Source of the DNA: an uncultured beta proteobacterium
GTDB taxonomy: Bacteria > Pseudomonadota > Gammaproteobacteria > Burkholderiales > Usitatibacteraceae
NCBI GenBank assembly: GCA_963741815.1
Contig: CAVUJI010000001.1
Location: 502,265-566,264, forward strand
Reading direction: 5' to 3'
DNA: 64,000 nucleotides
Below are positions 2,924-25,106 of this stretch, piece by piece; position 1 is the first letter of the stretch, and each line of letters starts with the position of its first letter. The position numbers and the translations under genes were made by a program. The notes below the pieces were generated by a model. That model did no database searches and was not told the origin of the DNA. It saw nothing but the letters and a program-made list of their open reading frames with translations.

Positions 2924-4723
2924 TCATTTGGACCGCGCCTCCGGTACCGGATTCCCGGATTTCGCGGCGGCCAGGCGCGTGAGGTGGGCCTCGAATTCGG
3001 CCCGTTCCTCGGCGGTCGCCTCGCCGGCTTCCATGCGCCGCAGGAGCTCGTCGGCGCGGCGCGCCCTGCGCGCCTCCGCCATGTGCTCGATGAGCCCCCG
3101 CACTTCGGCCGCATAGTCGAAATCGGGGCTTTCGGCTTGTTTTAAAAGGGGCTCGTCGAGGGCCTGCCGAATGGACTCGGCGTGGGCCGACGCCTCGAAG
3201 TAAGCGCTTGCTTGTCCCAGCGTCCGCTGGGGGTCGGCGCGGAAGAACGTCGCCACGGCGGCCAGGGCCTGGCCGTCGGGTCCGGAGCCGGCCTCCAGCG
3301 CCTCGGGCAGGCTCCCCGCGAGGGCGGGTCGCGCGAGCAGCAGCGCGAGGAGCTGGCGCTCGACCGGCGACATCGGCCGGCGCGCGCCGCGCCGGGGCGC
3401 GGCCGGCTTGCGCACGGGGCCCGGCGCCGGCGGCAGCAGGCCCTCGGCTTCCCCGGGGTCGAGGCGCGCGAGCTCGGCCAGGCGCCGGCGCAGCAGCGCG
3501 TGCAGCGCCGGGGCCTGGACCTGGGCGAGCAGCGGGCGGGCGAGGGCCACGAGCCGCGCCCGGCCCTCGTCGCTCGCCATGTCGACCTGCGAGGCGAGCT
3601 CGGCGAAGAGGAACTGCGACAGGGGCTTCGCCTCCCGCAGCGCCGCGAGCAACGCCGCCTTGCCCTCCCGGCGCACGAAGGTGTCGGGATCGTCCGCGGG
3701 CGGCAGGAAGAGGAAGCGCACGAGCTTGCCGTCGGCGAGCACGGGCAGGCAGACCTCGAGGGCGCGCCAGGCGGCCTTGCGCCCGGCCGCGTCGCCGTCG
3801 AAGCAGAAGACCACGTCGTCGGCGAGCTTCACGAGCTTGCCCACGTGCACCGGGGTGGTGGCCGTGCCGAGCGTGGCCACCACGTTCTCGACGCCGTGCT
3901 GCGCCAGCGCCACCACGTCCATGTAGCCTTCGACCACCAGCACCTGGCCCGCGTCGCGGATCGCGCGCCGGGCCTGGTAGAGGCCATAGAGCTCGCGGCC
4001 CTTCTCGAAGAGCGGCGTCTCCGGCGAATTGAGGTACTTGGGCTCGCCCGCCCCGAGGATGCGCCCGCCGAAGCCGATCACGTTGCCCCGGGTGTCGAGG
4101 ATCGGGAACATGATCCGGTGGCGGAACCGGTCGTAGCGGCGCGTCCGGCGCTCGGGGTGCGCCTCGTCGGCCTCGGAATCGATCACCAGGCCCGTCTCCT
4201 TGAGCGCAGGGCTGCCGTAGTCGGCGAACACCGATTCGAGGTTCTGCCATCCCTCCGGGGCGTAGCCGAGGCCGTAGCGGGCGGCGATCTCCCCGGTGAG
4301 CCCGCGCCCCTTGAGGTAGTCGATCGCGGCCTGGGACTTCTTGAGCTGGGCGCGGTAGTAGGACAGTGCCTCCAGCATGCGCTCGGCGAGCCCCGGCCCC
4401 TGCGCGGGCGCCGGCCGCGGCCCCCGCCCCGGCGACTCCGGCACGGCCATGCCGACGGTCTCGGCGAGCGCGCGGATCGCCTCCGGGTAGGCGAGCCCGG
4501 AGTACTCCATCAGGAAGCCGATGGCATTGCCGTGGGCGCCGCAGCCGAAGCAGTGGTAGAACTGCTTCGACGGGCTCACGGTGAACGACGGGGTCTTCTC
4601 GTTGTGGAACGGGCAGCAGGCGGTGAGGTTGGTGCCCGCCTTGCGCAGCTTCACGTACCGGTCCACCACGTCGACGATGTCGACGCGCGCGAGCAGCGAC
4701 TGGATGAATTCCTGCGGGATCAT
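2924..4723 (-). CDS. dnaG: DNA primase
   Basis: Zn finger CPFHNEKTPSF..YHCFGC, KYLNSPETPLF, TOPRIM VVEGYMDV and FCFDGDAAG. Confidence 0.97.
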   Translation of the reverse strand: MIPQEFIQSLLARVDIVDVVDRYVKLRKAGTNLTACCPFHNEKTPSFTVSPSKQFYHCFGCGAHGNAIGFLMEYSGLAYPEAIRALAETVGMAVPESPGRGPRPAPAQGPGLAERMLEALSYYRAQLKKSQAAIDYLKGRGLTGEIAARYGLGYAPEGWQNLESVFADYGSPALKETGLVIDSEADEAHPERRTRRYDRFRHRIMFPILDTRGNVIGFGGRILGAGEPKYLNSPETPLFEKGRELYGLYQARRAIRDAGQVLVVEGYMDVVALAQHGVENVVATLGTATTPVHVGKLVKLADDVVFCFDGDAAGRKAAWRALEVCLPVLADGKLVRFLFLPPADDPDTFVRREGKAALLAALREAKPLSQFLFAELASQVDMASDEGRARLVALARPLLAQVQAPALHALLRRRLAELARLDPGEAEGLLPPAPGPVRKPAAPRRGARRPMSPVERQLLALLLARPALAGSLPEALEAGSGPDGQALAAVATFFRADPQRTLGQASAYFEASAHAESIRQALDEPLLKQAESPDFDYAAEVRGLIEHMAEARRARRADELLRRMEAGEATAEERAEFEAHLTRLAAAKSGNPVPEARSK

Positions 4724-4782
4724 GGCCGAGGCTAGATTACCGGATCGGCCGCCCGCCGCCGCGCCCGGCGGGGGCGCGGGCG

Positions 4783-5226
4783 CTAGCCGAGCTTCGCCTT
4801 GACCAGGGCCGAGACGCGCGCCATGTCGGCGCGGCCGGCGAGCTTCGGCTTGACCACGCCCATCACCTTGCCCATGTCGGCCGGGGAGCGCGCGCCGGTG
4901 GCGGCGAGCGCCTCGGCGACCGCGGCCTCGATCTCGGCCTCGGACAGCCGCTGCGGCAGGTACGTCTCGAGGATGCCCACCTCGTAGCGCTCGCGGTCGG
5001 CCAGGTCCTGCCGCGAAGCCTTCTCGTACTGCGCGATCGAGTCCTTGCGCTGCTTGATCATCTTCTCGACCACCGCGACCACACCCGCGTCGTCGAGGCG
5101 CACGCGCTCGTCGACCTCGCGCTGCTTCACGGCGGCGAGCAGCAGCCGCAGCGCCCCGAGCCGCTCCGGCTCGCGCGCCTTCATCGCCGCCTTCACGTCC
5201 TCGTCCACCCGTTCGCGCAATGCCAT
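4783..5226 (-). CDS. GatB/YqeY domain protein
   Basis: D.KAAMKA..., KQRKDSIAQYEKA.R.DLA..E, YLPQ.LSE, DMGKVMG; usual position between rpsU and dnaG. Confidence 0.92.
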   Translation of the reverse strand: MALRERVDEDVKAAMKAREPERLGALRLLLAAVKQREVDERVRLDDAGVVAVVEKMIKQRKDSIAQYEKASRQDLADRERYEVGILETYLPQRLSEAEIEAAVAEALAATGARSPADMGKVMGVVKPKLAGRADMARVSALVKAKLG

Positions 5227-5349
5227 GGATCGGTCCTCCGGAATGGGCACGCCGCGCGGGCGGCGCCCGAAACGAACGCGGCGAGCCGGGCGCAAGGCCC
5301 CGCTCGCCGCGGGAAATTCGAAGGGCCCCGGCCGTGCCGGGAGCCGGGC

Positions 5350-5562
5350 CTAGTACAGCTTCGGCGGCAGCATCTGCGCGCGCATGCGCTTGTAGCGGCG
5401 CTTCACCGCCGCGGCGTGCTTGCGCTTGCGCTCGGCGGTCGGCTTCTCGTAGAACTCGCGGGCGCGAAGCTCGGTCAGCAAGCCGGTTTTCTCGACGGCG
5501 CGCTTGAAGCGGCGCAGCGCCACGTCGAACGGCTCGTTTTCCTTGACACGGACAATGGGCAT
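5350..5562 (-). CDS. rpsU: 30S ribosomal protein S21
   Basis: [37 protein letters not shown], 70 aa. Confidence 0.97.
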
Positions 5563-5662
5563 GGGCAGGACGAAGGGTTTCTGTTGCCGGAAAACCACGC
5601 ATAATATCAGGATTTTGGCCTTCCGAAAAGGCCGCTCCTCCCCCGTCCCAGCCCCCTCGCCC

Positions 5663-6697
5663 GTGCTCGTCCTCGGCATCGAGACCTCCTGCGACGAGAC
5701 CGGCGTCGCGCTCTACGACAGCCGCCTCGGCCTCCTCGGCGACGCCCTGCATTCGCAGGTCGCGCTGCACGCGCCCTACGGCGGCGTGGTGCCCGAGCTC
5801 GCCTCGCGCGACCACATCCGCCGCCTGCTGCCGCTCGCCCGCTCCGCGCTCGCGCAAGCCGGGCGCAGCCTCGCCGACGTGGACCTCATCGCCTATACCC
5901 GCGGCCCGGGGCTCGGCGGGGCGCTCCTCGTGGGGGCCGCGGTCGCGGCGGGGCTCGGCATCGCGCTCGACCGCCCCGTCGCCGGCATCCACCACCTCGA
6001 AGGCCACCTGCTCTCCCCGCTCCTCGCCGAGCCCCGGCCGGCGTTCCCGTTCGTGGCGCTCCTCGTCTCCGGCGGCCACACGCAGCTCATGCGCGTGGAG
6101 GACGTGGGCCGCTACCGCCTGCTCGGCCAGACGCTCGACGACGCGGCCGGGGAGGCGTTCGACAAGACGGCGATGCTGCTGGGGCTGGGCTACCCGGGGG
6201 GGCCGGCGCTCGCGCGCCTGGCCGAGGCGGGCGACGCCTCGCGCTTCGCCTTCCCGCGCCCGATGATCGCGAGCGGCGACCTCGACTTCAGCTTCAGCGG
6301 CCTCAAGACGGCGGTCCTCATGCGCGTGCGCGCGCTGGGCGCGCTCGACGAGCGCACCCGCGCGGACCTCGCGGCGTCGTTCCAGGCCGCCCTCGTCGAG
6401 GTGCTCGCCGCCAAGTGCGTCGATGCGCTCGAGCGCGAGGGGCTCGACCGGCTGGTCGTGGCCGGCGGCGTGGGCGCGAACGCGGCGCTGCGCGAGCGGC
6501 TGCGCGCCGCGCTCGGCGAGGAAGGCCGGGAGGTCTACTTCCCGCCGCTGCGGCTGTGCACGGACAACGGGGCGATGATCGCCTTCGCCGCGGCGCTGCG
6601 GCACGCGCGGGGCGACCTGCGCGCCGAGGCGGGCTTTCCGGTCCAGCCGCGATGGGACCTGGACGAGGCGGCGGCTCAGTCGACGCCGCGCCGGTAG
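5663..6697 (+). CDS. tsaD: tRNA N6-threonylcarbamoyladenosine transferase
   Basis: [55 protein letters not shown]; divergent from rpsU. Confidence 0.97.
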
Positions 6698-7353
6698 GCG
6701 ACTTCCGCCTCCGCGACCGCCTGCTCGGCGCGGTGCACCGCTTCCTCGAGCCGGGCGACCCGCTCGTAGTACCCGGTGTTCGGCACGCCGGTGGGACAGA
6801 TGAGCACCGGCTCGCCCTTGGGATTGATCGCCTTGCGGCAGTTGGCCCGGGGCGCCATGCCCAGCATGCCGCCCCTGGCGGGAATGCTCTGCGTCGTGTC
6901 CGAGCCCAGCGTCGTGGGGGGCGCGTCGGGGTTGGCGGCGCCGGCGTCGAACTGGTTCGGGTTGATGCTCTTGGGATCGACCTGCCGGCGCGTGTACTGC
7001 TGGTCGGCGTCGGCCATTCCGGTCGCCTCCGCGAGGGCCTTGCGCGCGAGCGCGAGGCGTTCGCGGGCCTGCGCCAGGTTCGCCTCGAGGCGTGCGCGCG
7101 TGCTCCGGCGCTGCTCGAGGATATCGGGCACGGCGGGTTCGCCTTCGCCGGGCGCCACCCCCTCCCGGATCACGGGCGCGGGGATCGTCGTCGTGGCCGG
7201 GTCCACCTCGATCCGGGTCGCGTCCCGGGCGTCCTTCGGCGGGGCGTCGCCGTAGTGCACGACGCCGTCCTTCCCGGTCCAGCGGTAGAACGTCTCCGCC
7301 ATCGCCGGCGGCACGATCCACGGGCCGGCGAGCGCCAGCAGCACCGAAAGCAC
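6676..7353 (-). CDS. Exported DUF4124-type protein with coiled-coil (start uncertain)
   Basis: Signal peptide then [18 protein letters not shown] (DUF4124-like motif); helical C-terminus. Confidence 0.75.
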
Positions 7354-13743: not shown

Positions 13744-14004
13744 ATGGCCAAGGTGACGATGTACGCGACGGGCGTGTGCCCCTACTGCCAGATGGCGGAG
13801 CGGCTGCTGCGCTCGAAGGGCGTGCAGGAGATCGAGAAGGTGCGGGTGGACCTCGAGCCGGGCCGGCGCGAGGAGATGATGCAGCGCACGGGCCGGCGCA
13901 CCGTGCCGCAGATCTACGTGGGCGAGCGCCACGTCGGCGGCTACGACGACCTCGCGGCGCTCGACCGCGCCGGCGGCCTCGACCCCCTGCTCGCCGCGCC
14001 CTGA
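13744..14004 (+). CDS. grxC: Glutaredoxin 3
   Basis: [18 protein letters not shown]. Confidence 0.95.
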
Positions 14005-14036
14005 GCGCCCCACAACCCCCGATTCAAGGAACCCCG

Positions 14037-14525
14037 ATGACCGAAGCCCAGAACCAGCCCGTGTTCTCGATCGAGAAGGTCTACGTGAAGGACCTCTCCC
14101 TCGAGATCCCCAACGCCCCGCAGGTGTTCCTCGAGCGCGAGTCGCCCACGGTCGACATCCAGCTGCACCACAACTCGAGCGGCGTCGAGGAGGGCGTGTA
14201 CCAGACGGTGCTCACCGTGACGATCACCGCCAAGATCCAGGACAAGACGCTCTTCCTCGTCGAGGCCGCCCAGGCGGGCATCTTCGTCGTGCGCAACGTC
14301 CCCGAGCCGGATCTCGAGGCCGTGCTCGCGATCGCCTGCCCCAACATCCTCTTCCCCTACGCGCGCGAGGTCGTCTCCGACGTGGTCACGCGGGCCGGCT
14401 TCCCGCCCGTGGTGCTCGCCCCGGTGAACTTCGAGGCGGTCTACCAGCAGCAGCGCAACGCCCAGGGCGCGGGCGGCGGCGAGCAGCAGGACGTGCAGAT
14501 CATCACCCCCACCGTGTCGCACTGA
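14037..14525 (+). CDS. secB: Protein export chaperone SecB
   Basis: [45 protein letters not shown]. Confidence 0.96.
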
Positions 14526-14529
14526 GGCC

Positions 14530-14973
14530 ATGAAGGGCGCGGCGGCGGCTCTCGCCCTCCTCGCGCTCGCGCTCGCGGGCCTCGCGGGCGCCGCCGAGTT
14601 CCGCTCCGTCGGCGCGCAGCCGGCGATCCTCTACGACGCGCCGTCGGTGCGCGCCGACCGGCTCTTCGTGGCCAGCCGCTACTACCCCCTCGAGGTCCTC
14701 GTGAAGCTCGACCTGTGGACCAAGGTGCGCGACGCGAACGGCGAGGTCGCCTGGGTCGAGAACTCGGCGCTCGGCGCGCGCGCCACCGCGGTGGTGAGCG
14801 CGCCGGTGGCCGACGTGCACGCCGCGCCCGACACGCGCTCGCCCCTGGTCTTCGAGGCCTACCGCTCGGTCCTGCTCGACGTGCTCGCGCCGGCGGCGGA
14901 CGGCTGGGTGCGCGTGCGCCATCGCGACGGGCAGGAAGGCTACGTGCGCGTCTCCCAGGTCTGGGGCGCCTGA
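14530..14973 (+). CDS. Exported SH3-domain protein
   Basis: Signal peptide and two SH3-like repeats (WTKVRD..G..AWVE; GWVRVRH.DG..GYV). Confidence 0.85.
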
Positions 14974-14977
14974 GCCG

Positions 14978-15955
14978 GTGAAGGTGGCGGTCCTCGGCGC
15001 GGGAGCGTGGGGATCGGCCCTCGCGATCTCGCTCTCGGCGAGCCACACGGTCCACCTCTGGACGCGCGACCCGGACGACTGCGCCGCGCTCGGGCGCGAG
15101 CGCGCCAGCCGCTACCTGCCGGGCGCGCCCTTCCCCGCCGCGCTCGCGATCGAGCCCTCTCTCGCGGCCGCCGCGCGCAGCGAGCTCGTCGTCGTGGCGA
15201 CCTCCACCTCGGGGCTGCGGCCCACGCTCGATGCGCTGCGCGCGCACGCGTCCCGGCCCGCGCTGCTGTGGGCGTGCAAGGGCTTCGAGTCGGGCTCGCG
15301 CCGGCTCCCCCACGAGGTCGTGGCCGAGGCGCTGCCCGGGGCGACGCAGGTGGGCGCGCTCTCCGGCCCCAGCTTCGCCGCGGAAGTCGCCAGGGGCCTG
15401 CCCACCGCCCTCGTGCTCGCCTCGGCCGACGCGGCGTTCGCCGCCGCCACCGCCGCCGCCCTCAACACGCCGCGCCTTCGCATCTACTCGAGCGCCGACG
15501 TGCGCGGCGTCGAGCTGGGCGGCGCGGTGAAGAACGTGATCGCGATCGCCGCGGGCATCGCCGACGGGCTCGAGCTGGGCCGCAACGCGCGCGCCGCACT
15601 CGTCACCCGCGGGCTGGCCGAGGTGGTGCGCCTCGGCGTGGCGCTCGGCGGCCAGCCCGAGACGTTCATGGGCCTCGCCGGCGTGGGCGACCTCGTGCTC
15701 ACCTGCACGGGCGAGCTGTCGCGCAACCGCGAGGTGGGCGTGCGCCTCGCCCAGGGGCGCGCGTTGGGCGAGGTGCTCGCCGCGCTGGGGCACGTGGCCG
15801 AGGGCGTGCACTCGGCGCGCGCCGTGCGCGACCTCGCGCGCGCGCACGGCGTCGAGATGCCGATCACCGAGGCCGTCTGCGGCGTGCTCTTCGAGGACGT
15901 GGCCCCCGAGCGGGCGGTCGAGCGGCTCCTCACCCGGGACCCGCGCTCCGAGTAG
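14978..15955 (+). CDS. gpsA: NAD(P)H-dependent glycerol-3-phosphate dehydrogenase
   Basis: [47 protein letters not shown]. Confidence 0.96.
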
Positions 15956-16022
15956 CCGGACCGGGGGGCGCACTATAGAATCCCCCTATCCCGACGCCCG
16001 AGAAAAAGACTTGCATCGCACC

Positions 16023-18380
16023 ATGCGGCGGCACGGGGCGCTCGCGGCCTCGATCTTCCTGGCGTTGTGCCCGCCCGCTCACGCGGCCGCCGGGGCACAG
16101 GACGCGAAGCCGTCGCGCGAGGCGATCGCGCGCGAGCGCGCGCGCAAGGTCGTCGCCGCGCGCGAGAGCGGCTACTGGATCGTCTCCCCGGGCGAGCACC
16201 TGCGGCTCATCGCGCAGCAGTTCTTCCACGGCGACCGCCCGCGCCAGCGGCAACTCGCCGCCGAGCTCTTCGCGCGCAACCCCGGCGCCTTCCGCTACGG
16301 CGACCGCGACCGTCTCATCGTCGGCGCCCGCCTCGTGCTGCCCCCGCGGCTCGTGGCGCGGGCCGCCGCCGTCGCCAAGCGCGCCGCGGGCGAGCCGGCG
16401 GCGCCCGCCCGCGGACGGGACGCGCCCGGACCCGCGCCGGCGCCGTCCCTGCCCGAGTCGCTGCGCGCCTTCGACGCGGGCCCGGCGCGCCCTCCCGCAC
16501 CCGCGCCGAAGCCCGCGTACGTCGACCAGCTCATCGACCCGGCCGCGGCCGCCGCCGAGGAGGCGCGGCAGATCGAGGAAGAGGCGCAGCCGCCGGGCCG
16601 GCGCTCGGTGGCGCTGGAGTACCGGGTCGAGGGGCGCTATCCGCCCGGCACGCGCCACAGCCTCGAGCAGGGCATGAACCTGCAGGTGCGCCGCGAGACG
16701 CTCAACTACGGCGACTTCCTCCTCGACGCCGGCGTGCGGGACACGCAGCCGCCCGAAGGCTCGCTCGCGCAGCGGCGCAACGGCGCCCGCTTCACCCTCT
16801 TCCAGGAACGCTTCCCGCTCGGCGTGGGCTGGCTCGCCGACTCGGCCATCGGCGTGGTGCGCACGCCGCCCAGCTTCCTCGTCAACTCCTCGTATCGCAT
16901 CTTCCTGCCCACCTCGCTCGTCTCCGGCGCCACGACGGTCGCCGCCGACGGGCGCCGGCAGGTCATCGCCTTCGCCGGGCACGTGGGCCGCCTCGAGGGC
17001 AGCGCGGTGCAGACCTTCGATCCCACGACCGGCACCCTCGCGGGCGCGGGATACTCGCAGCGCTTCGGGAACTGGAACGTCGGCGGGCAGGCGATCGCGC
17101 TGCGCGGCAACGCCGAGGTCCGCGACCACACGGCGGCGACCGTCGCGGCGGAGTACGGCTTCCAGGGCGGCCTGCGCCACCACAAGGCGCAGCTCGTGGT
17201 GGACGACGACTCGAACGTGGGCGCGTGGTTCGACGGCGACCTCACGACGGGCCGGCTGCGGCAGCGCTTCGGCCTCTTCCACCTCGACCCGGAGCTCGCC
17301 TACGGCGACGGCGCGATCGCCAACGACCAGCGCGGCGCCTACTGGCGCGGCGACTACCACATGCTGCGCTACACGCTCTCGGGCGGCGCGGACCTCGGCG
17401 AGACGAACCTGCGCGGGGACCCGCGGCGCGCGGCCACGCGCTCGGCGAGCGCGTACGGCACGTTCTCGCTGCGCATCGACCGCAACCTCACCGTGGGCGG
17501 CGGCCTCACCCTCGCGCGCGCCCACTCGCGCTTCACCCTGTCCGCGCGCGCCACGACGGTCTCGGGCAACGCCTACGCCGCCTGGTCCAACGCGCTCGGC
17601 CTGAGCCGGCTCGACCTCACCGCCTTCCGCGGCACCTCCACCGGCGTGCCGGACAACATCCAGGACCGCGTGTCCTGGAGCCAGGACTGGCCGGACCTCG
17701 GGTGGACGCACCTGACCTCCACCGTGAGCTACGCCCGGGAAGATTCGCAGGCGGGGCCCACGCGCCGCGCGAGCGTCGGGCTGTCCGCCCGCGGCAGCCT
17801 CCCGCTCGATGCGCTGTGGGACGCGAGCGTGGTGTACGGGCGGGTGGACACGGACGCCGGCACGGAAAACGACGTGAACGTGAGCGCGTCCTCCACGTGG
17901 CGGCTCACGCGGCACTGGAGCGCGCTCGCCCAGGTGAGCGTGAGCACGTTCGATCCCCTCCCGCCCCTGCCGGGCGGCCCCGAGCTGCCGCTGCAGCGCG
18001 ACAAGCGCTTCCTGCTCGGGCTGCGCTACGAGGAGTCGTCCGGGACGCCGTACCAGGTGCTCGGCCTGCGCGCGGGCGTGGGCAGCGGCGTGCTGCAGGG
18101 CACGGTGTATTTCGACGAGAACGGCGACGGCTCGCGCCAGCCCACCGAGCGCGGCGCGCCGAACGTCACCATCTACCTCGACGGGCGCTATCCGGCGACC
18201 ACCGACTCGCAGGGCCGCTTCGCGTTCCCGGTGGTGACGCCGGGCAGCCACGCGCTGCGCATCCTGAGCGAGACGCTGCCGCTGCCGTGGACCTTCGCCG
18301 ACGACCGCCCGCTGCTCGCCAACGTCCCCCTGCGCGGCGCGGCGCAGGTGGACGTGCCGCTCACGAGGATCCGGCCTTGA
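16023..18380 (+). CDS. Putative usher-like outer-membrane beta-barrel protein with N-terminal FimV-type LysM domain and C-terminal SdrD-B/Ig-like domain
   Basis: Signal peptide (..PPAHA); YWIVSPGEHLRLIA..LFARNPGAF..GDRDRLIVGARLVLP; Pro/Ala linker; about 480 aa of amphipathic beta-strands; GTVYFDENGDG..E.G.PNVTIYLDG..TTDSQGRF.F. Confidence 0.65.
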   Translation: MRRHGALAASIFLALCPPAHAAAGAQDAKPSREAIARERARKVVAARESGYWIVSPGEHLRLIAQQFFHGDRPRQRQLAAELFARNPGAFRYGDRDRLIVGARLVLPPRLVARAAAVAKRAAGEPAAPARGRDAPGPAPAPSLPESLRAFDAGPARPPAPAPKPAYVDQLIDPAAAAAEEARQIEEEAQPPGRRSVALEYRVEGRYPPGTRHSLEQGMNLQVRRETLNYGDFLLDAGVRDTQPPEGSLAQRRNGARFTLFQERFPLGVGWLADSAIGVVRTPPSFLVNSSYRIFLPTSLVSGATTVAADGRRQVIAFAGHVGRLEGSAVQTFDPTTGTLAGAGYSQRFGNWNVGGQAIALRGNAEVRDHTAATVAAEYGFQGGLRHHKAQLVVDDDSNVGAWFDGDLTTGRLRQRFGLFHLDPELAYGDGAIANDQRGAYWRGDYHMLRYTLSGGADLGETNLRGDPRRAATRSASAYGTFSLRIDRNLTVGGGLTLARAHSRFTLSARATTVSGNAYAAWSNALGLSRLDLTAFRGTSTGVPDNIQDRVSWSQDWPDLGWTHLTSTVSYAREDSQAGPTRRASVGLSARGSLPLDALWDASVVYGRVDTDAGTENDVNVSASSTWRLTRHWSALAQVSVSTFDPLPPLPGGPELPLQRDKRFLLGLRYEESSGTPYQVLGLRAGVGSGVLQGTVYFDENGDGSRQPTERGAPNVTIYLDGRYPATTDSQGRFAFPVVTPGSHALRILSETLPLPWTFADDRPLLANVPLRGAAQVDVPLTRIRP

Positions 18381-19239
18381 CGGGAGCGACGATCGAGTCG
18401 ATCGCCTGCCGGCCGCCGTCCCACTCGATGGTGCCGCGCAGGCGCAGCGGATAGGCGATCTGCGGCGTCTTCTTGTCCGCCGCCTCCTGCGCCCACAGCG
18501 CCACGGAGCGCGTCTCCCCGGGCAGGATCGGGAACGGCGATACCACGAACTCGTAGCTTTTCCCCGCGGCGTCGCGCCCCTCCAGGATCCCCTCGGGCCG
18601 CCCGTGGGACGAGCCGCTGTTGAGGAACGTGGCCGCCGGCGTGAGCCGCCCGTTGAAGTCCTTGAGGCCCACGTCCTTCAGCTCGAGCCGCGGCGAGACC
18701 TCGCCCACGGCGATGTAGACGATCACGCCGATGCGGCCCTGCAGCGGGAACTGGATGTTGCCCGCGGTGACCTCCGGCAGGTCGTCGGAGGCCTTCTGGA
18801 TGATGATGGCGAAGCGGCATTCCTGCGCCGGCGCATCCGCCGGCACGTGCACCTCGAAGCGGTACTTGCGCACGCCGTGCGGCTGCATCGGGACCTTGTG
18901 CCGCTCGATGCGCACCCACGGCCGGCAGCTGCCGGGCTGCAGGGGGTCCTGGAACTCCACGCCGCCCTGGGCGTTCAGGCGCCAGTCCGCGGTGGACACC
19001 GCGAACTCGTCGGGCACGGCCGCGTCGTTGCCGATCTCGAGCACCTCGCGCAGCACCGACCCCGGCTTGGTCTTGAGCTCGAAGCGGGGCGGGCTCACGA
19101 GCCCGGCGAACGCGAAAGCGCCCGCCGGCGCGCACAGGGCGAGGGCGAGCGCGAGCGCCGCCGCGAACCTAGGGCTGCAGCGGCTCGATGTCGAAGACGG
19201 GGTCGAACTGGATGCCACGCTCCGAGGTGCGCGCGTCAA
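18361..19239 (-). CDS. Putative periplasmic pilus chaperone (PapD/EcpB-like, two beta-sandwich domains)
   Basis: Hydrophobic signal region, VSPPRFEL, LEIGN, Cys pair (SCRPW; ECRFAII), FLNSGSSHGRPEG; TTG start with AGGA 6 nt upstream. Confidence 0.65.
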   Translation of the reverse strand: MTRAPRSVASSSTPSSTSSRCSPRFAAALALALALCAPAGAFAFAGLVSPPRFELKTKPGSVLREVLEIGNDAAVPDEFAVSTADWRLNAQGGVEFQDPLQPGSCRPWVRIERHKVPMQPHGVRKYRFEVHVPADAPAQECRFAIIIQKASDDLPEVTAGNIQFPLQGRIGVIVYIAVGEVSPRLELKDVGLKDFNGRLTPAATFLNSGSSHGRPEGILEGRDAAGKSYEFVVSPFPILPGETRSVALWAQEAADKKTPQIAYPLRLRGTIEWDGGRQAIDSIVAPVKAGSS

Positions 19240-19651
19240 GGTAGATCCTGAAGTCGAAGATTTCGGTCGTTACGGGCTGGGTAATCTTACCGCGATAGAC
19301 CAGCGCGCGGTCCCCCGGCAGCACCGTCCCCGCGCTGAACAGGCCGCGGGTCTTCCACTCCACGCGCATGGTGGAAGGTACCCGCACGCCGCTCACGTGC
19401 CGCGGGATCGACAGGTAGATCTCGACGTCCTTGCCGACGTACGCGGCGGTGCGGAAGCGCAGCTCCATGCCCCGCACTTCCGCCACCAGCGCGTTCAGCT
19501 GGTCCTCGGTCCAGTCGCCGGCGCCCTCGTACAGCCATGTCGAGGTGGTGTCCACGCGCTGCCGCGGCGAGAGCGAGTCGTCGAGGCGCGCGCCCGCCGC
19601 CGGGGCCGACGCGAGCGCGAGCAGGAGGAGCACGGGAAGGCACCGGGTCAT
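19169..19651 (-). CDS. Exported beta-rich hypothetical protein of the pilus-like operon
   Basis: Signal peptide MTRCLPVLLLLALASAPAAGA; ATGA overlap with the upstream pilin gene; 160 aa. Confidence 0.7.
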   Translation of the reverse strand: MTRCLPVLLLLALASAPAAGARLDDSLSPRQRVDTTSTWLYEGAGDWTEDQLNALVAEVRGMELRFRTAAYVGKDVEIYLSIPRHVSGVRVPSTMRVEWKTRGLFSAGTVLPGDRALVYRGKITQPVTTEIFDFRIYLDARTSERGIQFDPVFDIEPLQP

Positions 19652-20217
19652 GGCATCGCGAGCGTGTAGGTCACGCTGCCCGTATAGGTGCCGGCGGACA
19701 CGAGGTTGTCGTTGAGGTAGGTGAACTGCGCGCACACGCACGCGCGCTGGGAGGTGCCGAAGCTGAGCAGCGGCTGCCCCGCCGAATCGTTGAACGCGCC
19801 CGACGGAATCGTGGTGGGGGCATTGAGGCAGCCGCTCGGCCCGCCGCCGGGCGTCGACGAGGTCCATGCGATCTGGCTGAACGGGATCGTGTTCCCGGCG
19901 GAGAGCAGGGGCGAGGACGAGTCGGCGCTCAGCGTGGCCGTGCGGCGCGACCAGCGGTACGAGCGGGCCTGGGCGTCGATGAGCACGGTGCCCGCCGGGC
20001 ACGTCGGGCTCGGCGGCGTCACGCTCGAGGCCGGAATGTCGGTTCCGTCGCCGACGCTCGCGCCGGGCACGCTGAAGTTCACCTGGTTCACGGTGGCGTT
20101 CGTGCCGCCGACCTGCAGGATGAGGCGCCAGCGCCCGTTGCGGATCGACACGGTCGCGGCGGGGGTCGCCTCGACGGCGGCGAGCAGGAGCGCGAGCGCG
20201 AGGGCGAGCGACCTCAC
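19648..20217 (-). CDS. Pilin-like minor subunit B
   Basis: Signal peptide, four Cys, C-terminal AGTYTGSVTYTLAMP; gapless paralogue of the next gene. Confidence 0.7.
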   Translation of the reverse strand: MRSLALALALLLAAVEATPAATVSIRNGRWRLILQVGGTNATVNQVNFSVPGASVGDGTDIPASSVTPPSPTCPAGTVLIDAQARSYRWSRRTATLSADSSSPLLSAGNTIPFSQIAWTSSTPGGGPSGCLNAPTTIPSGAFNDSAGQPLLSFGTSQRACVCAQFTYLNDNLVSAGTYTGSVTYTLAMP

Positions 20218-20224
20218 GCCGGCC

Positions 20225-20788
20225 TCACGGCATCGCGAGCGTGTAGGTGACACGCCCCGAGTAGGTGCCGGCCGATACCACGCTCTGGTTGAGGTAGCGG
20301 AACTGGGCGCACACGCACGCGCGCCGCGACGTGCCGAAGGAGACGAGCGGCTGTCCCGGCGCGCCGCTGAACGTGCCGGAAGGAATCGTGGTGGGCGCGT
20401 TGAGGCAGCCGCTGGGGCCGCCCCCGGGCGTGGACGAGGTCCAGCCCACCTGGCTGAAGGGGATGGTGGACGCGCCCGAGGTGAGCGGCGCCGACGAGTC
20501 GGCCGAGAGCGTGGCCGTGCGCGGGCTCCGGTTCTGGGAGCGGGCCTGGGCGTCGATGAGCACCGTGTTGCCCGGACAGCTCGGGCTCGCGGGCGACACG
20601 CTGCTGCTCGTCACCGCCACGCCGTTGCCCACGCTCGTCCCCGGCACGCTGAAGTTGACCAGGTTGATCGTCCCGCCGGTGTTGCCGATCTGCAGGATGA
20701 GCCTGCCGCCGCCGTTGCCGATCACCACGGTCGCGGCGCCGGCGGGCCCGGCGAGGGCGCAAAGCAGTGCGAGGAGCAGTGTCTTCAT
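20225..20788 (-). CDS. Pilin-like minor subunit A
   Basis: Signal peptide MKTLLLALLCALAGPAGA, four Cys in the mature part, C-terminal AGTYSGRVTYTLAMP. Confidence 0.7.
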   Translation of the reverse strand: MKTLLLALLCALAGPAGAATVVIGNGGGRLILQIGNTGGTINLVNFSVPGTSVGNGVAVTSSSVSPASPSCPGNTVLIDAQARSQNRSPRTATLSADSSAPLTSGASTIPFSQVGWTSSTPGGGPSGCLNAPTTIPSGTFSGAPGQPLVSFGTSRRACVCAQFRYLNQSVVSAGTYSGRVTYTLAMP

Positions 20789-20794
20789 GAGGCG

Positions 20795-20828
20795 AAAAAG
20801 CCGGCTGGCTCGCGCCGCGCCGGCTTTC
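20795..20828 (-). terminator. Intra-operon terminator-like hairpin after the major pilin gene
   Basis: Minus strand AAAGCCGGC...GCCGGCTTTTT, ending 6 nt before the next ATG. Confidence 0.65.
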
Positions 20829-20850
20829 CGTTCTCGCCCGGAGGTGCCGG

Positions 20851-21468
20851 TTACGGCATGGAGGCAGTATACGTGACGCGGCCTCCCTTCGTGCTCGTGC
20901 CGTACGTGCCGGCCGAGTGGATCGCGGAGTTCGCGTACGAGTAGGTCCACACCGCCGAGCGATTCGTCACGTCGCCGGTGTTGAGCACCGGCAGGCTGGT
21001 GTTGCCGCCGGCATCCGAGAGCACGGGCCGCTGCAGGTTGGCCGCGTCGCTCGACGTGGTCGAGATCTCGCTGTAGCTGATGTTCTCGGCGAGGCTGGCG
21101 TGCGCGAGCCCGCTGCCGCCGCCGTTGTTGTTCTCCGTGATCGTGATCTGGCCGCCGTTGCCCACGACCGTCACGTTGGCCGCGGTGCCGCCGCCGGCGT
21201 CGCCGCCCGTGCCCGCGATCGGCGTCGAATCGCCCACGTTGGCCGCGGGGACGGTGAAGGTGATCTGGTCGATCGTCGCGCCCGTGGTGCCCACGCGGAA
21301 GGACAGGAAGCGCGGGATCACGATCGAGAAGTCGAGGCGGGCATCGGTGCTGAGCGCGCCGCCGCCGTTGACCGTCGTGCGTTCGGCATGGGCGGGGATC
21401 GCCGCCGCCAGGGCCGCACCCATGCCGAGCGCGAAGGCGGTTTTGAGCATTTTCGATTTCGTTTTCAT
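20851..21468 (-). CDS. Pilin-like major subunit (Csu/spore-coat-U/WxL-like C-terminal strand)
   Basis: Signal peptide ending IPAHA, GGAG RBS, Gly/Thr/Ser/Asn-rich beta protein, no Cys, C-terminal AGTYG..GGRVTYTASMP. Confidence 0.7.
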   Translation of the reverse strand: MKTKSKMLKTAFALGMGAALAAAIPAHAERTTVNGGGALSTDARLDFSIVIPRFLSFRVGTTGATIDQITFTVPAANVGDSTPIAGTGGDAGGGTAANVTVVGNGGQITITENNNGGGSGLAHASLAENISYSEISTTSSDAANLQRPVLSDAGGNTSLPVLNTGDVTNRSAVWTYSYANSAIHSAGTYGTSTKGGRVTYTASMP

Positions 21469-21557
21469 GTGTCACTCCGTCTGCTGGGGTTTATCGGCCG
21501 GGCTGCGTTGGCCCGTGTTCATGGCCTGCATTTAGCGCCCGATGGCCCCCGCGGTGC

Positions 21558-21573
21558 TGTGACACCTCGCACA
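21558..21573. promoter_or_regulatory. CRP-family (CRP/Vfr/Clp) binding box upstream of the pilin-like operon
   Basis: TGTGA-CACCTC-GCACA, 9/10 match to TGTGA-N6-TCACA, centred about 98 nt upstream of the pilin ATG. Confidence 0.55.
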
Positions 21574-21702
21574 GAACCCCATGTTTTCACGTGCTTTTTG
21601 GCCCATTTCCGATTGCATCGGTAATCGCGCTGTAACATGCGCGCCGCTCGTTCCGGCTTTCGGCCCGCTCGTCGCCACGCTGATGCAAGGAGGGATTTCG
21701 CC

Positions 21703-22173
21703 CTAGGCCGCGCCCGGGAAGCCCTGCTGGCGCCAGGCCTCGAACACCGTGACGGCGACCGCGTTGGAGAGGTTGAGGCTGCGGTTGCCGGGGCGCATCG
21801 GCAGGCGCAGGCGGCGCTCGGCCGGGAAGGTGTCGAGCAGCGCGTCGGGCAGGCCGGCGGTCTCGGGGCCGAAGACGAAGGCGTCGCCGGGACGGTACGC
21901 CGGGCGCGTGTACGCCACGGCCCCGCGCGTCGAGAGCGCGAACAGGCGCGCCGCGCCGAGCGCGGCGAGGCACGCTTCCCAGCTCGGGTGCGTGCGCACG
22001 GTGGCGAGCTCGTGGTAGTCGAGCCCCGCGCGGCGCAGCCGCCGGTCGTCCATCGAGAAGCCGAGCGGCTCCACGAGGTGCAGGCGCGCGCCCGCGTTCG
22101 CGCACAGCCGGATCACGTTGCCGGTGTTGGGCGGGATCTCGGGACGGAAGAGCACGACGTCGAACACGGTCAC
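21703..22173 (-). CDS. trmL: tRNA (cytidine34-2'-O)-methyltransferase
   Basis: VVLFRPEIPPNTGNVIRLCAN, LRRAGLDY, FGPETAGLP, RSLNLSN. Confidence 0.95.
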   Translation of the reverse strand: MTVFDVVLFRPEIPPNTGNVIRLCANAGARLHLVEPLGFSMDDRRLRRAGLDYHELATVRTHPSWEACLAALGAARLFALSTRGAVAYTRPAYRPGDAFVFGPETAGLPDALLDTFPAERRLRLPMRPGNRSLNLSNAVAVTVFEAWRQQGFPGAA

Positions 22174-22910
22174 CGCCCCGGCTCGGGGGCGCGTGCGACG
22201 ACCCACACGCTCACGCGGGCGGCCCCGGCGCGCCGCAGCGCGCAGCCGATCGCGTGCGCCGTGGCGCCCGTGGTGAGCACGTCGTCCACGAGCGCCACGT
22301 GGCGGCCGTCGTAGCGGCGCGTGCAGCCGAAGGCCCCGCGCAGGTTGGCCAGGCGCGCGCGCCGGCCGAGGGCCGCCTGGGGGCGCGCCTCGCGCAGGCG
22401 CACCAGCGCATGCCGGTCGCAACGCACGCCGAGCGCGCGCGCGACGGGATGGGCGAGCTCGAGGGCCTGGTTGAACCCGCGCCCGGCGAGGCGGGCGCGG
22501 GAAAGCGGCGGCACGACGATCGCGTCGGGGAGGGCGCCGGGTGCCGCGGGCGCGAGCGCCGCGGCGAGGCGCTCGCCGAGCCAGCGCCCCACGGCGAGGT
22601 CCCCGGCGTACTTGAACCGCTGGACCAGGCGATCGACCGGGAAGCGGTAGGCGAAGCACGCGCGCGCGGCGTCGAAGGCGAGGCGACGCCCCTGGCAGGC
22701 GCCGCAGGGTGCGTCCGGCGCGGCCAGGGGATGCGCGCAGCGCGGGCAGGCCGGACCGGGCACCGGCAGGCCGCGGGCGCAGGCCCGGCAGAGGCAGCGC
22801 CCCGCCGCGCGCGCCCCGCAGAGCAGGCAGTCCTCCTCCCACGGCAGGGGCCACGAGGCTGCACAAGAAATAGGCGGCGGGAAGGTCGCTCGTCCCATCC
22901 GATTTGACAA
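22170..22910 (-). CDS. comF: ComF family protein (start uncertain)
   Basis: Four CxxC motifs, [26 protein letters not shown]. Confidence 0.9.
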
Positions 22911-22932
22911 GTCCCGGAAAATCACGAATTAT
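22904..22932 (+). promoter_or_regulatory. Putative sigma70 promoter of the bio operon
   Basis: TTGACA, 17 nt spacer, AATTAT, ending 27 nt before the bioB ATG. Confidence 0.6.
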
Positions 22933-22959
22933 CAACCCGTTAGCAACAAGACCTCGACC

Positions 22960-23931
22960 ATGGACACCCCCGTCGCCTTCCCCCCCCGCACCGACGCGCG
23001 CCTGCAGCCCCTGCGCGACGAGGCCCTGCGCCTCTACGCCCTTCCCTTCAACGATCTGCTCCACCAGGCGCAGACCGTGCACCGCGCCCACTTCGACCCG
23101 AACCGCGTGCAGCGCTCGACGCTGCTGTCGATCAAGACCGGCGGCTGCCCCGAGGACTGCGGGTACTGCCCCCAGTCGGCGCGCCACCACGCCGGCGTCG
23201 ACAGCCAGGAGCTGCTGCCGCTCGAGGAGGTCGTGCGCACGGCCCGGGCCGCGAAGGAGCACGGCGCCACCCGCTTCTGCATGGGCGCGGCGTGGCGCGG
23301 ACCCAAGGCACGCGACCTGGCGCCGGTGCTCGACATGGTGCGCGAGGTGAAGGCCCTGGGCCTCGAGACCTGCTGCACGCTGGGCATGCTGAAGGACGGC
23401 CAGGCCGAGCAGCTGCGGGACGCCGGGCTCGACTACTACAACCACAACCTCGATACCGCGCCGGAATTCTACGGCAACGTCATCACGACCCGGGACTACG
23501 AGGACCGGCTCGCGACCCTCGAGCGCGTGCGCGGGGCCGGCGTGCACGTCTGCTCCGGCGGCATCGTCGGCATGGGCGAGTCGCGCGAGGGCCGGGCGGG
23601 CCTGCTGGCACAGCTCGCGAGCCTCGACCCGCAGCCCGAGTCCGTGCCCATCAACGAGCTGGTGCCCGTCGAGGGCACGCCGCTCGCCGGCAGCGAGAAG
23701 CTGCCGTGGGTGGAGTTCGTGCGCACGATCGCGGTCGCGCGCATCCTCATGCCGCGCAGCATGGTGCGCCTGTCGGCGGGCCGCAGCGCCATGAGCGAGG
23801 CCGTCCAGGCGCTGTGCTTCCTCGCCGGGGCGAACTCGATCTTCTACGGCGACAAGCTCCTCACCACCGGCAACCCGGACGTCGCGCGCGACGACGCGCT
23901 CTTCGCCGCGCTGGGTCTGGGCGCGGCCTGA
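22960..23931 (+). CDS. bioB: Biotin synthase
   Basis: [16 protein letters not shown] radical-SAM motif, [29 protein letters not shown]. Confidence 0.98.
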
Positions 23932-23933
23932 GC

Positions 23934-25106
23934 ATGGGCGACGCGGTCTCGCGGCTGGTCGACGGGCTGGCGGGCCTCGACCGCGACGCGCTGCGCCGGC
24001 GCCGTCGCATCCTCGACTCGCCCCAGGCGCGCGAGGTGCGCGTGGACGGGCGCACGCTGCTCAACTTCTCGAGCAACGACTACCTGGGCCTCGCCGCCGA
24101 CCCGCGCATCGCCGCCGCCGTGCATGCGGCCATCGACCGCTACGGCGTGGGCGCCGGCGCCTCGCCCCTCGTCACGGGCCACCAGCGCATCCACGAGGAG
24201 GCGGAGGCGCGCTTCGCGGCCTTCTGCGGCCTGCCGCGGGCGCTGCTCTTCGGCAGCGGGTACGCCGCGAACATCGGCATCCTCGTGGCGCTCTCCGGGC
24301 CCGACGCCGAGATCTTCGGCGACCGGCTGAACCACGCCTGCCTGCACGACGGGGCGCGCCTGTCGCGCGGCACCTACACGCGCTACGGTCACCTCGACCT
24401 GGGCGAGCTCGAGCACGGCCTCGCGCGCTCGCGGGCCGCCGTGCGCATCGTCGCCACCGACAGCGTCTTCAGCATGGACGGGGACGTGGCGCCGCTGCCG
24501 GAGCTCGTCGCGCTGTGCGAGCGCCACGACGCCTGGCTCGTGGTCGACGACGCCCACGGCATCGGCGTGCTGGGCCCGCAGGGCCGCGGCACGCTCGCCC
24601 ACTTCGGCGTCTCCTCCCCGCGCATCGTCTACATGGCCACGCTCGGCAAGGCGCTGGGCGGCTACGGCGCCTTCGCGTGCGGCGCGCCGGAGGCGGTCGA
24701 ATGGCTGCTGCAGCGCGCGCGCACGTACATCTTCTCGACGGCGCTGCCGGCCATGATGGCCGCCGCCGTCCTCGCCGCGATCGGCCTGCTCGAGGGCGGG
24801 CACTCGCCGCTGCCGCGATTGCGCGGCCGCATCGCGGAGTTCGCCGCCGCGGCCCGGGGCCTGCCGCTCGCGCCCTCGCCCACCGCGATCCAGCCCATCG
24901 TCGTCGGCACGCCGGAGCGGGCGCTGGCGGCCTCGGCGCGGCTGCTCGAGGCGGGGCTGCTGGTGCCGGCGATCCGGCCGCCGACGGTGCCGCCCGGGAC
25001 CTCGCGCCTGCGCGTGTCGCTGAGCGCCGCCCACTGCGCGGCGGACGTCGAGCGGCTCGTCGCCGCGCTGCGCGCGTGCTTCCCCGAGGCGCGGGCCGCG
25101 GAGTGA
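23934..25106 (+). CDS. bioF: 8-amino-7-oxononanoate synthase
   Basis: [48 protein letters not shown]. Confidence 0.96.

Follow-up and report, generated by a model that had tools for sequence, protein, structure and literature searches.

We report that a 64,000-nucleotide (nt) stretch of DNA (referred to as the window) from an uncultured beta proteobacterium of the Usitatibacteraceae carries, between gpsA and trmL, a cassette of six genes that very probably encodes a pilus of the donor-strand-exchange kind, assembled at a reduced usher. The original prediction, which was made from the sequence of the window, had described these genes as a six-gene island with signal peptides on all products, resembling a divergent and accessory surface-fibre system of the chaperone-usher (CU) type. 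The six open reading frames (ORFs) are intact and bracketed by gpsA (14978-15955 (+)) and trmL (~22173-21703 (-)); both flanking genes are presumed from recognition of their sequences. The genes and features of the cassette are as follows.

20851..21468 (-): predicted major pilin, 205 amino acids (aa); signal peptide, N-terminal donor strand and incomplete immunoglobulin (Ig)-like pilin core
21313..21384 (-): predicted donor strand, mature residues 1-24; T13-x-A15-x-L17-x-F19-x-I-x-I, unpaired in the model
20225..20788 (-): minor pilin 1, 187 aa; donor strand largely missing, four mature Cys, predicted tip subunit
19648..20217 (-): minor pilin 2 (GTG start, 189 aa); shares 73% identity with minor pilin 1, of which it is a duplicate
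19169..19651 (-): secreted beta protein of 160 aa; probably a subunit with a special role, a candidate for pore gate, terminator or adaptor
18361..19218 (-): two-domain periplasmic chaperone, probably starting at a GTG (~285 aa); mature protein from 19110, C-terminus without a membrane helix
16023..18380 (+): usher-like outer-membrane protein, 785 aa; fold matches FimD/PapC
16116..16337 (+): LysM/FimV-like domain at the N-terminus of the barrel protein; not always present (13/37 usher ORFs)
16518..16535 (+): Y-x-D-x-L-I motif directly before the barrel; candidate stand-in for the usher N-terminal tail
16602..18041 (+): predicted beta-barrel of 26 consecutive strands (DSSP) with no inserted plug domain
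18087..18368 (+): single C-terminal SdrD-B/CnaB-like domain, homologue of usher C-terminal domain 1 (CTD1), at the protein end; no CTD2

The barrel gene (16023-18380 (+)) is convergent with the other five genes, which are all on the minus strand in the order major pilin, minor pilin 1, minor pilin 2, 160-aa gene and chaperone, and it overlaps the 3' end of the chaperone gene by 20 nt. With the barrel gene on the opposite strand the six genes do not constitute a single operon; moreover, the last gene starts at 21468 and does not extend to 21573 as first thought. All six proteins have a hydrophobic N-terminal stretch (best 11-residue hydropathy 2.0-2.9) and, as judged by hydropathy only, this agrees with the signal peptides assigned earlier. 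The GC content of the six genes is 69-75% (third codon position 93-97%), close to the 73% of the window and the 71.5% of the genome; base composition therefore carries no sign of recent transfer and gives no support to a recent horizontal island. Scanning the six proteins against Pfam and NCBIfam returned nothing above cut-off, so no part belongs to any curated family, and the closest named relatives are from Usitatibacter sp. and Betaproteobacteria bacterium. A search for sigma-70 promoters gave no match, terminator-like sites numbered 2 against 1.8 expected, and an Rfam scan of 14000-24000 at E 1 gave no match and hence none to a cyclic di-GMP riboswitch.

The C-terminal strand G-T-Y-(x)n-G-x-V-T-Y-T-x-x-M-P, reported earlier as shared by three of the six products, was confirmed, and among the 19,263 stop-to-stop frames of at least 100 aa in the genome the pattern matches these three alone; being built from the same three proteins it is circular as a test of chance and shows that there are no further copies. 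Apart from the motif, the major and minor pilins are homologous by profile-profile comparison (P 99.3, E 1e-20). The AlphaFold2 model of the mature major pilin (predicted local distance difference test score (pLDDT) 95.7) leaves residues 1-26 unpaired outside a beta core of residues 27-175, i.e., an incomplete Ig-like fold whose N-terminus provides a donor strand is predicted rather than a complete fold. In Foldseek the first 17 rows are all CU pilins, although weak (E 0.009-0.07), and in VIA CfaE/CfaB ranks first (Z 8.1, root mean square deviation (rmsd) 2.9, 124 aligned), followed by CfaE (Z 7.8) and TLP-1b (Z 7.5, rmsd 5.0, 146 aligned), while CsuA/B scores Z 6.4. TLP-1b (PDB 9ikk), from a pond fibril of unrecorded source, is thus the third-best fold match, in an alignment that takes in the donor strand; TLP-1 (described in PMC11494351) and the cassette have in common that both are uncategorised donor-strand fibres, the cassette by prediction. 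That the two might be the same was rejected (8% identity, 237 residues in TLP-1b compared to 177 in the major pilin, and no sequence match), which leaves the same architecture in a different family.

The donor strand of the major pilin contains [GA]x[VIL]xF in 70 of 100 aligned homologues, and the strict WxL donor consensus (taken from bioRxiv 10.64898/2026.10.17.759780) in five. Both minor pilins align from F19 of the major pilin onward and lack most of this strand, so that only one of the three paralogues has it in full; consequently, the minor pilins may accept a strand but have little to donate, and a donor-less minor pilin would fit the tip position. No gene for a two-domain tip adhesin was found among the six genes. 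The pilin alignments gave 0 matches to PDB sequences, no matches to SCPU or class-5 families, and Pfam WxL in 0/100 pilins. In the Atlas, queried with the homologues P0057 and P0184 in place of the window's own pilin, a WxL cluster scored 0.90 with a low shared count (151/256), and an SCPU look-alike scored 0.91 with that family on 15% of its members only. No WxL chain was among the matches listed in the pilin fold searches, the library of which may contain none.

In the model of the barrel protein (pLDDT 87.2, predicted template modelling score 0.70) a LysM/FimV-like domain is followed by a disordered linker, by 26 strands in succession (model residues 170-649; ~18.5 residues per strand over 480 residues) and by one beta-sandwich. 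The large protein is accordingly modelled as a wide barrel, as proposed, with FimD/PapC in the first 16 listed Foldseek rows (E 2e-15 to 6e-8), followed by MtrB (9e-8). VIA superimposed model residues 166-652 on residues 142-638 of the PapC chain (Z 16.7, rmsd 5.6, 373 aligned), an alignment spanning the whole translocation domain, and FimD gave Z 15.7-16.1 (rmsd 4.7-5.8). The C-terminal domain is homologous to usher CTD1 (P 88, E 3e-6). An usher plug comprises approximately 80 residues. The longest loop in the barrel is 18 residues, the largest insertion among 69 homologues is 23 residues, and the barrel of genome G467 is colinear with that of the window; hence there is no room for a plug domain, whose absence, like that of the other domains, is predicted. 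Of the features that define the FimD/PapC-type usher family (PF00577), the protein is predicted to lack a 24-strand barrel, an internal plug and an N-terminal domain (NTD) together with two CTDs, and it has no Pfam Usher score above cut-off. By eye, strands 4-6 resemble W-L-E-R-D...G-D...D-G...S-D of FimD, a likeness that would locate the absent plug after strand 6 and before strand 7; as hhalign gave it no significance, it was not used.

Two further features are located N-terminal to the barrel. The LysM-like domain matches the Kbp profile (E 0.0025) and FimV_core (E 0.076) and is present in 13 of 37 usher ORFs, the N-terminus being either LysM-like or absent. Directly before the barrel, Y-x-D-x-L-[IM] occurs in 33 of the 37 usher ORFs (Y in 67/70 and D in 68/70 alignment rows; low pLDDT in the monomer model), and in the colinear cassettes it follows soon after the signal peptide, the protein stopping after one CTD. 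We infer that this motif replaces the chaperone-binding NTD tail of ushers. At locus L019 (13085-15748 (+)) a classical usher, with Pfam Usher and PapC_C above cut-off, lies beside the cassette and also has an N-terminal LysM-like domain, so that this appendage is common to usher types in the genus. At locus L107 of genome G736 (4333-6772) the barrel gene is split into two ORFs, due to a frameshift or an assembly error.

The chaperone gene has no ATG, and its probable GTG start at 19218 lies inside the upstream 160-aa gene, which suggests translational coupling. The same arrangement is seen in the closest clade (window 19110-19239 (-), L001, L002, L096, L111), where the chaperone likewise lacks an ATG and a GTG/TTG start is likely inside the 160-aa gene, 38-43 codons ahead of the PPRF motif. 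By sequence profile the protein is a two-domain chaperone related to the PapD superfamily. A 92-sequence profile searched against the PDB matched EfmWxLIP1 (9i25/9i1y; 29.8 bits, E 2.7e-6), with EcpB behind (12.1 bits); in hhalign EcpB was matched with P 82.8-87.8 (P 82.8 corresponding to E 9e-6 over 160 columns), and FimC gave no match. The profile also reaches PapD_N-positive chaperones in genomes G105, G069, G139 and G622 (30-42 bits, E 1e-10 to 5e-7 per genome), which sit beside PF00577 ushers. Pfam WxLIP_PGBD is found in 18 of the 92 members at E 0.01 or less (best E 1.2e-5) but not in the window's chaperone, and neither PapD_N nor PF11797 is found in any of the 92. The label WxL-type chaperone was therefore judged too strong, since the PapD_N-positive proteins score as high; given the EcpB and PapD_N-positive matches alongside that to WxLIP, the family is, on profile evidence, intermediate between PapD-type and WxL-type chaperones. 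Of the 92 members, 78 keep an Arg at mature position 9, which we take to be the equivalent of PapD Arg8, an alternating G1-like strand (I-Q-F-P-L-Q-G-R-I-G-V-I-V-Y) is present, and the C-terminus is hydrophilic and without a membrane helix as judged by hydropathy.

The 160-aa protein belongs to a family of which 1,055 relatives were found, with near-invariant D4-D5 and W19 and a C-terminal alternating strand (F-E-I-D). The family has no Pfam match, a PDB sequence search gave two chance-level matches, and no profile match was obtained to the other pilins or to the E. coli Fim/Ecp subunits. Language-model look-alikes of the homologue P0184 are Saf, AfaD and PsaA pilins (0.92-0.93, 169-179 of 256 features shared). 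The idea that the protein is a split-off usher domain was discarded, as slices of the plug, NTD and CTD1 gave no profile match and CTD2 gave P 13. For complexes predicted from three chains (barrel residues 140-758, chaperone and 160-aa protein, with the last one scored) the score was 0.32 (runs 0.32, 0.65 and 0.01) compared to 0.00 for the best control, including the one in which the barrel was replaced; contact agreement was at least 42% and partner pLDDT at least 63. In the benchmark the mark was reached by 116/157 solved and 2/215 mismatched pairs, but of the solved pairs no more than 18 reached it with a score of 0.60 or less, as did both mismatches; the 0.00 of the barrel-replaced control is no evidence against binding of the 160-aa protein to the chaperone. 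Taken as models, these complexes give weak support for the 160-aa protein engaging the barrel.

To survey related loci we searched genomes with the chaperone profile. Of the 81 genomes of the family to which the window belongs, 50 yielded the chaperone (55 matches), and of 301 genomes of the order 13 did so, one of them marginally. In the phylum 16/401 genomes match, of which only G000, G058 and G467 exceed 280 bits, and the remaining matches (30-133 bits) are other chaperone families. We read 34 loci picked by their chaperone match (L001-3, L019-28, L049 and 20 of the 55 family-search matches), leaving out L018 as a duplicate of L002 and L029 at a contig end; the genomes are kin and not independent samples. 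Barrel, chaperone, major pilin (1-3 copies) and minor pilin occur together in all 34 loci, and the 160-aa gene is present in 33, always in the order major, minor, 160-aa, chaperone. Most relatives have one minor-pilin copy compared to two in the window. The barrel gene lies downstream, convergent, upstream or divergent relative to the rest, and its constant presence in four orientations indicates that it stays with the cassette through rearrangements. Gene content, order and conservation are, together with the sequence homologies above, direct observations.

Fifteen of the 34 loci adjoin trmL and/or gpsA, and in L093 and L094 (genomes G751 and G799) two cassettes of this kind lie in tandem at the gpsA-trmL site. 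Five cassette-free genomes of the family were examined at the site. In G746, which is complete and of the same genus, trmL and gpsA are 10 nt apart and the site is empty; the cassette is therefore still accessory, as had been proposed. A classical usher cluster occupies the site in G770, exopolysaccharide-like genes (named from sequence) occupy it in G761 and G755, and in G233 gpsA and trmL are far apart and there is no cassette. The gpsA-trmL junction is a hotspot for surface cassettes (loci L148, L149, L150, L093 and L094).

Taken together, we consider it highly probable that the cassette encodes a donor-strand-exchange pilus at a reduced usher, with a donor-less minor pilin as tip, the major pilin as shaft and a small protein at the pore; fold matches and chaperone homology, as far as models go, support the surface-fibre system of CU type proposed originally. 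All parts would be exported by Sec, and the chaperone would lend its G1-like strand to every incomplete subunit. In the absence of a two-domain adhesin, fibre growth would begin with a donor-less minor pilin, which becomes the tip, after which copies of the major pilin would join, the T-x-A-x-L-x-F strand of each entering the preceding subunit. The fibre would exit via the predicted 26-strand barrel, where two docking sites, the short motif YxDxLI and the one domain similar to CTD1, may stand in for the NTD and CTD1/CTD2, and the optional LysM-like domain may tether the barrel to peptidoglycan. In the least certain step, the 160-aa protein would be a fourth subunit type that acts at the barrel, where it either shuts the pore that has no plug or caps the base of the fibre. 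As pore gate or first occupant of the pore it is a tentative candidate, and it may equally tentatively be a terminator at the fibre base, a role that can coincide with that of gate; a role as adaptor or tip is slightly less likely. A putative function of the pilus in surface attachment or biofilm formation is likely.

The cassette would work like a CU system yet falls outside both the FimD/PapC usher family and the WxL system. Classical ushers have a 24-strand barrel, a plug, an NTD, CTD1 and CTD2, and in PapC hydrophobic residues of the NTD tail bind the chaperone, as described in PMC8410936; for Fim/usher barrels 16 or 24 strands are given in bioRxiv 10.64898/2026.03.07.710327. As in Fim/Pap systems, the cassette has a pilin fold with an N-terminal extension, a two-domain periplasmic chaperone, a barrel whose model superimposes on the entire PapC/FimD translocation domain and a CTD1 homologue. 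Unlike these, its barrel protein is predicted to have 26 strands, neither a plug nor an NTD fold, a single CTD and an optional LysM-like domain, it lacks a two-domain adhesin, and its chaperone does not match FimC.

Several results weigh against a pilus assembled at a reduced usher. For the major pilin Foldseek gave no match at E 0.001, and its VIA scores fall in the range that the tool terms common (Z 8 or under). The relation of the barrel to ushers, for which the Foldseek matches and the CTD1 homology speak, finds no counterpart in barrel sequence homology: Pfam Usher matched 0/55 barrel members at E 0.1, hhalign gave nothing against FimD or EcpC, and when a usher profile of 27 sequences was cut into slices, those of the barrel, plug, NTD and CTD2 gave nothing significant. 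VIA scores porins of 18 strands level with ushers (OccK7 Z 16.2), OccAB4 ranking first when the search was wide, and the strand count was read from the DSSP string, not from coordinates, with several strands weakly amphipathic. Finally, the complete genome G467 has an insertion-free barrel, a chaperone and three pilins, yet no match to the 160-aa protein at E 1, so that this family does not supply a plug in every case, unless its member there has diverged beyond detection.

A WxL-like route, in which the chaperone alone nucleates periplasmic donor-strand polymerisation and the barrel is a passive conduit or anchor and not a catalytic usher, is improbable. It would account for a barrel without NTD, plug and CTD2, which constitute the recruitment, gating and hand-over machinery according to PMC8410936, and for the best PDB sequence match of the chaperone being a WxL chaperone; ElrE and ElrD are moreover stated to polymerise without other factors (bioRxiv 10.64898/2026.10.17.759780). 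The cassette also shares with the WxL/Elr system a chaperone homologous to WxLIP, a donor strand of similar register and the absence of a tip adhesin gene, tipless operons being common there according to the same preprint. However, the barrel keeps a CTD1 homologue and a near-invariant N-terminal motif, suggesting two docking sites, and the membrane anchor reported for 96.7% of WxL chaperones is missing from the chaperone of the cassette. Unlike WxL/Elr, the host is Gram-negative with an outer-membrane barrel, the chaperone lacks a membrane helix and scores below the DUF916 and DUF3324 cut-off, there is no sortase anchor, and none of the 100 pilins scanned matches Pfam WxL. In bioRxiv 10.64898/2026.10.17.759780 the WxL/Elr system is described as confined to Bacillota, its chaperones forming a set apart from those of CU systems at E 1e-20; our chaperone profiles suggest links weaker than E 1e-20, which do not contradict that separation.

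That the cassette is an ordinary divergent member of the alternative/alpha-Ecp or archaic/sigma clade, its missing domains being prediction artefacts, is very improbable. The best pilin folds (CfaE/CfaB, CsuA/B and CupE) and the homology of the chaperone to EcpB do connect it to the CFA/I-CS1, ECP, Csu and CupE systems. However, 480 residues of consecutive strands leave no space for a plug, YxDxLI lies close behind the signal peptide and there is only one CTD in colinear cassettes, which largely refutes this explanation as regards domain content; PF00577, PF00345, SCPU and WxL matched none of the family alignments scanned, and there is no two-domain tip adhesin. Compared to the alternative and archaic CU systems the cassette has no SCPU/class-5 match, no homology to EcpC, no large tip adhesin and an extra family, that of the 160-aa protein. 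No more credible is that, in place of a long pilus, the subunits give rise to a short complex at the surface or to an amorphous sheath, or are released: the absent adhesin domain, the FGL-type look-alikes of the 160-aa protein (Saf, Afa and Psa subunits, which form thin or capsule-like polymers) and the exopolysaccharide-like clusters at the same site in G761 and G755 would agree with it, but a self-compatible donor strand on the first-encoded subunit, of which there are often 2-3 copies, is what a shaft pilin typically shows. The Pam pilus of Candidate Phyla Radiation bacteria, as outlined in PMC13278184, is like TLP-1 an uncategorised donor-strand fibre, but has membrane-anchored chaperones and no usher and is in this respect unlike the cassette.

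In the FimD/PapC-based model of the usher, the plug keeps the pore shut and hand-over from NTD to CTD drives growth. With a donor-strand pilus at a reduced usher as our preferred reading, a conserved family without plug, NTD and CTD2 opens to testing both the minimal requirements of an usher and the way in which a wide pore is sealed, and the chaperone would connect, by sequence, the CU chaperones to those of the WxL kind, which were reported in October 2026 to be a separate family of Bacillota. The most far-reaching version, a minimal usher (26-strand pore without plug or NTD, one CTD, a six-residue recruitment motif and gating in trans by a pilin-like subunit) combined with a PapD/WxL-intermediate chaperone that links Gram-negative and Gram-positive donor-strand pili, we regard as unlikely in its entirety. 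A literature search covering few subscription papers and no preprint supplements returned no account of this clade or of a plugless usher. As all six parts escape Pfam and NCBIfam, such pili are invisible in standard annotation although 50 of the 81 family genomes yielded the chaperone.

Apart from these cassettes, genome G000 (79% complete) has no Pfam Usher match, and a plasmid search with the chaperone gave no match. Chaperone homologues (102-133 bits) are present in L050 (6732-7640) and L051 (6714-7562), with no pilin or barrel gene of the family detected within 14 kb. Other divergent pilus-like cassettes with related chaperones and barrel proteins of 870-1200 aa were seen in L052, L053, L055, L056 and L057; the barrels of L052 and L055-L057 have no Pfam Usher match, and L055 also has a DUF4402 subunit. 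A distant chaperone relative, P0412, matches unannotated Deinococcus plasmid proteins (H1-H5) at E 1e-16 to 1e-4.

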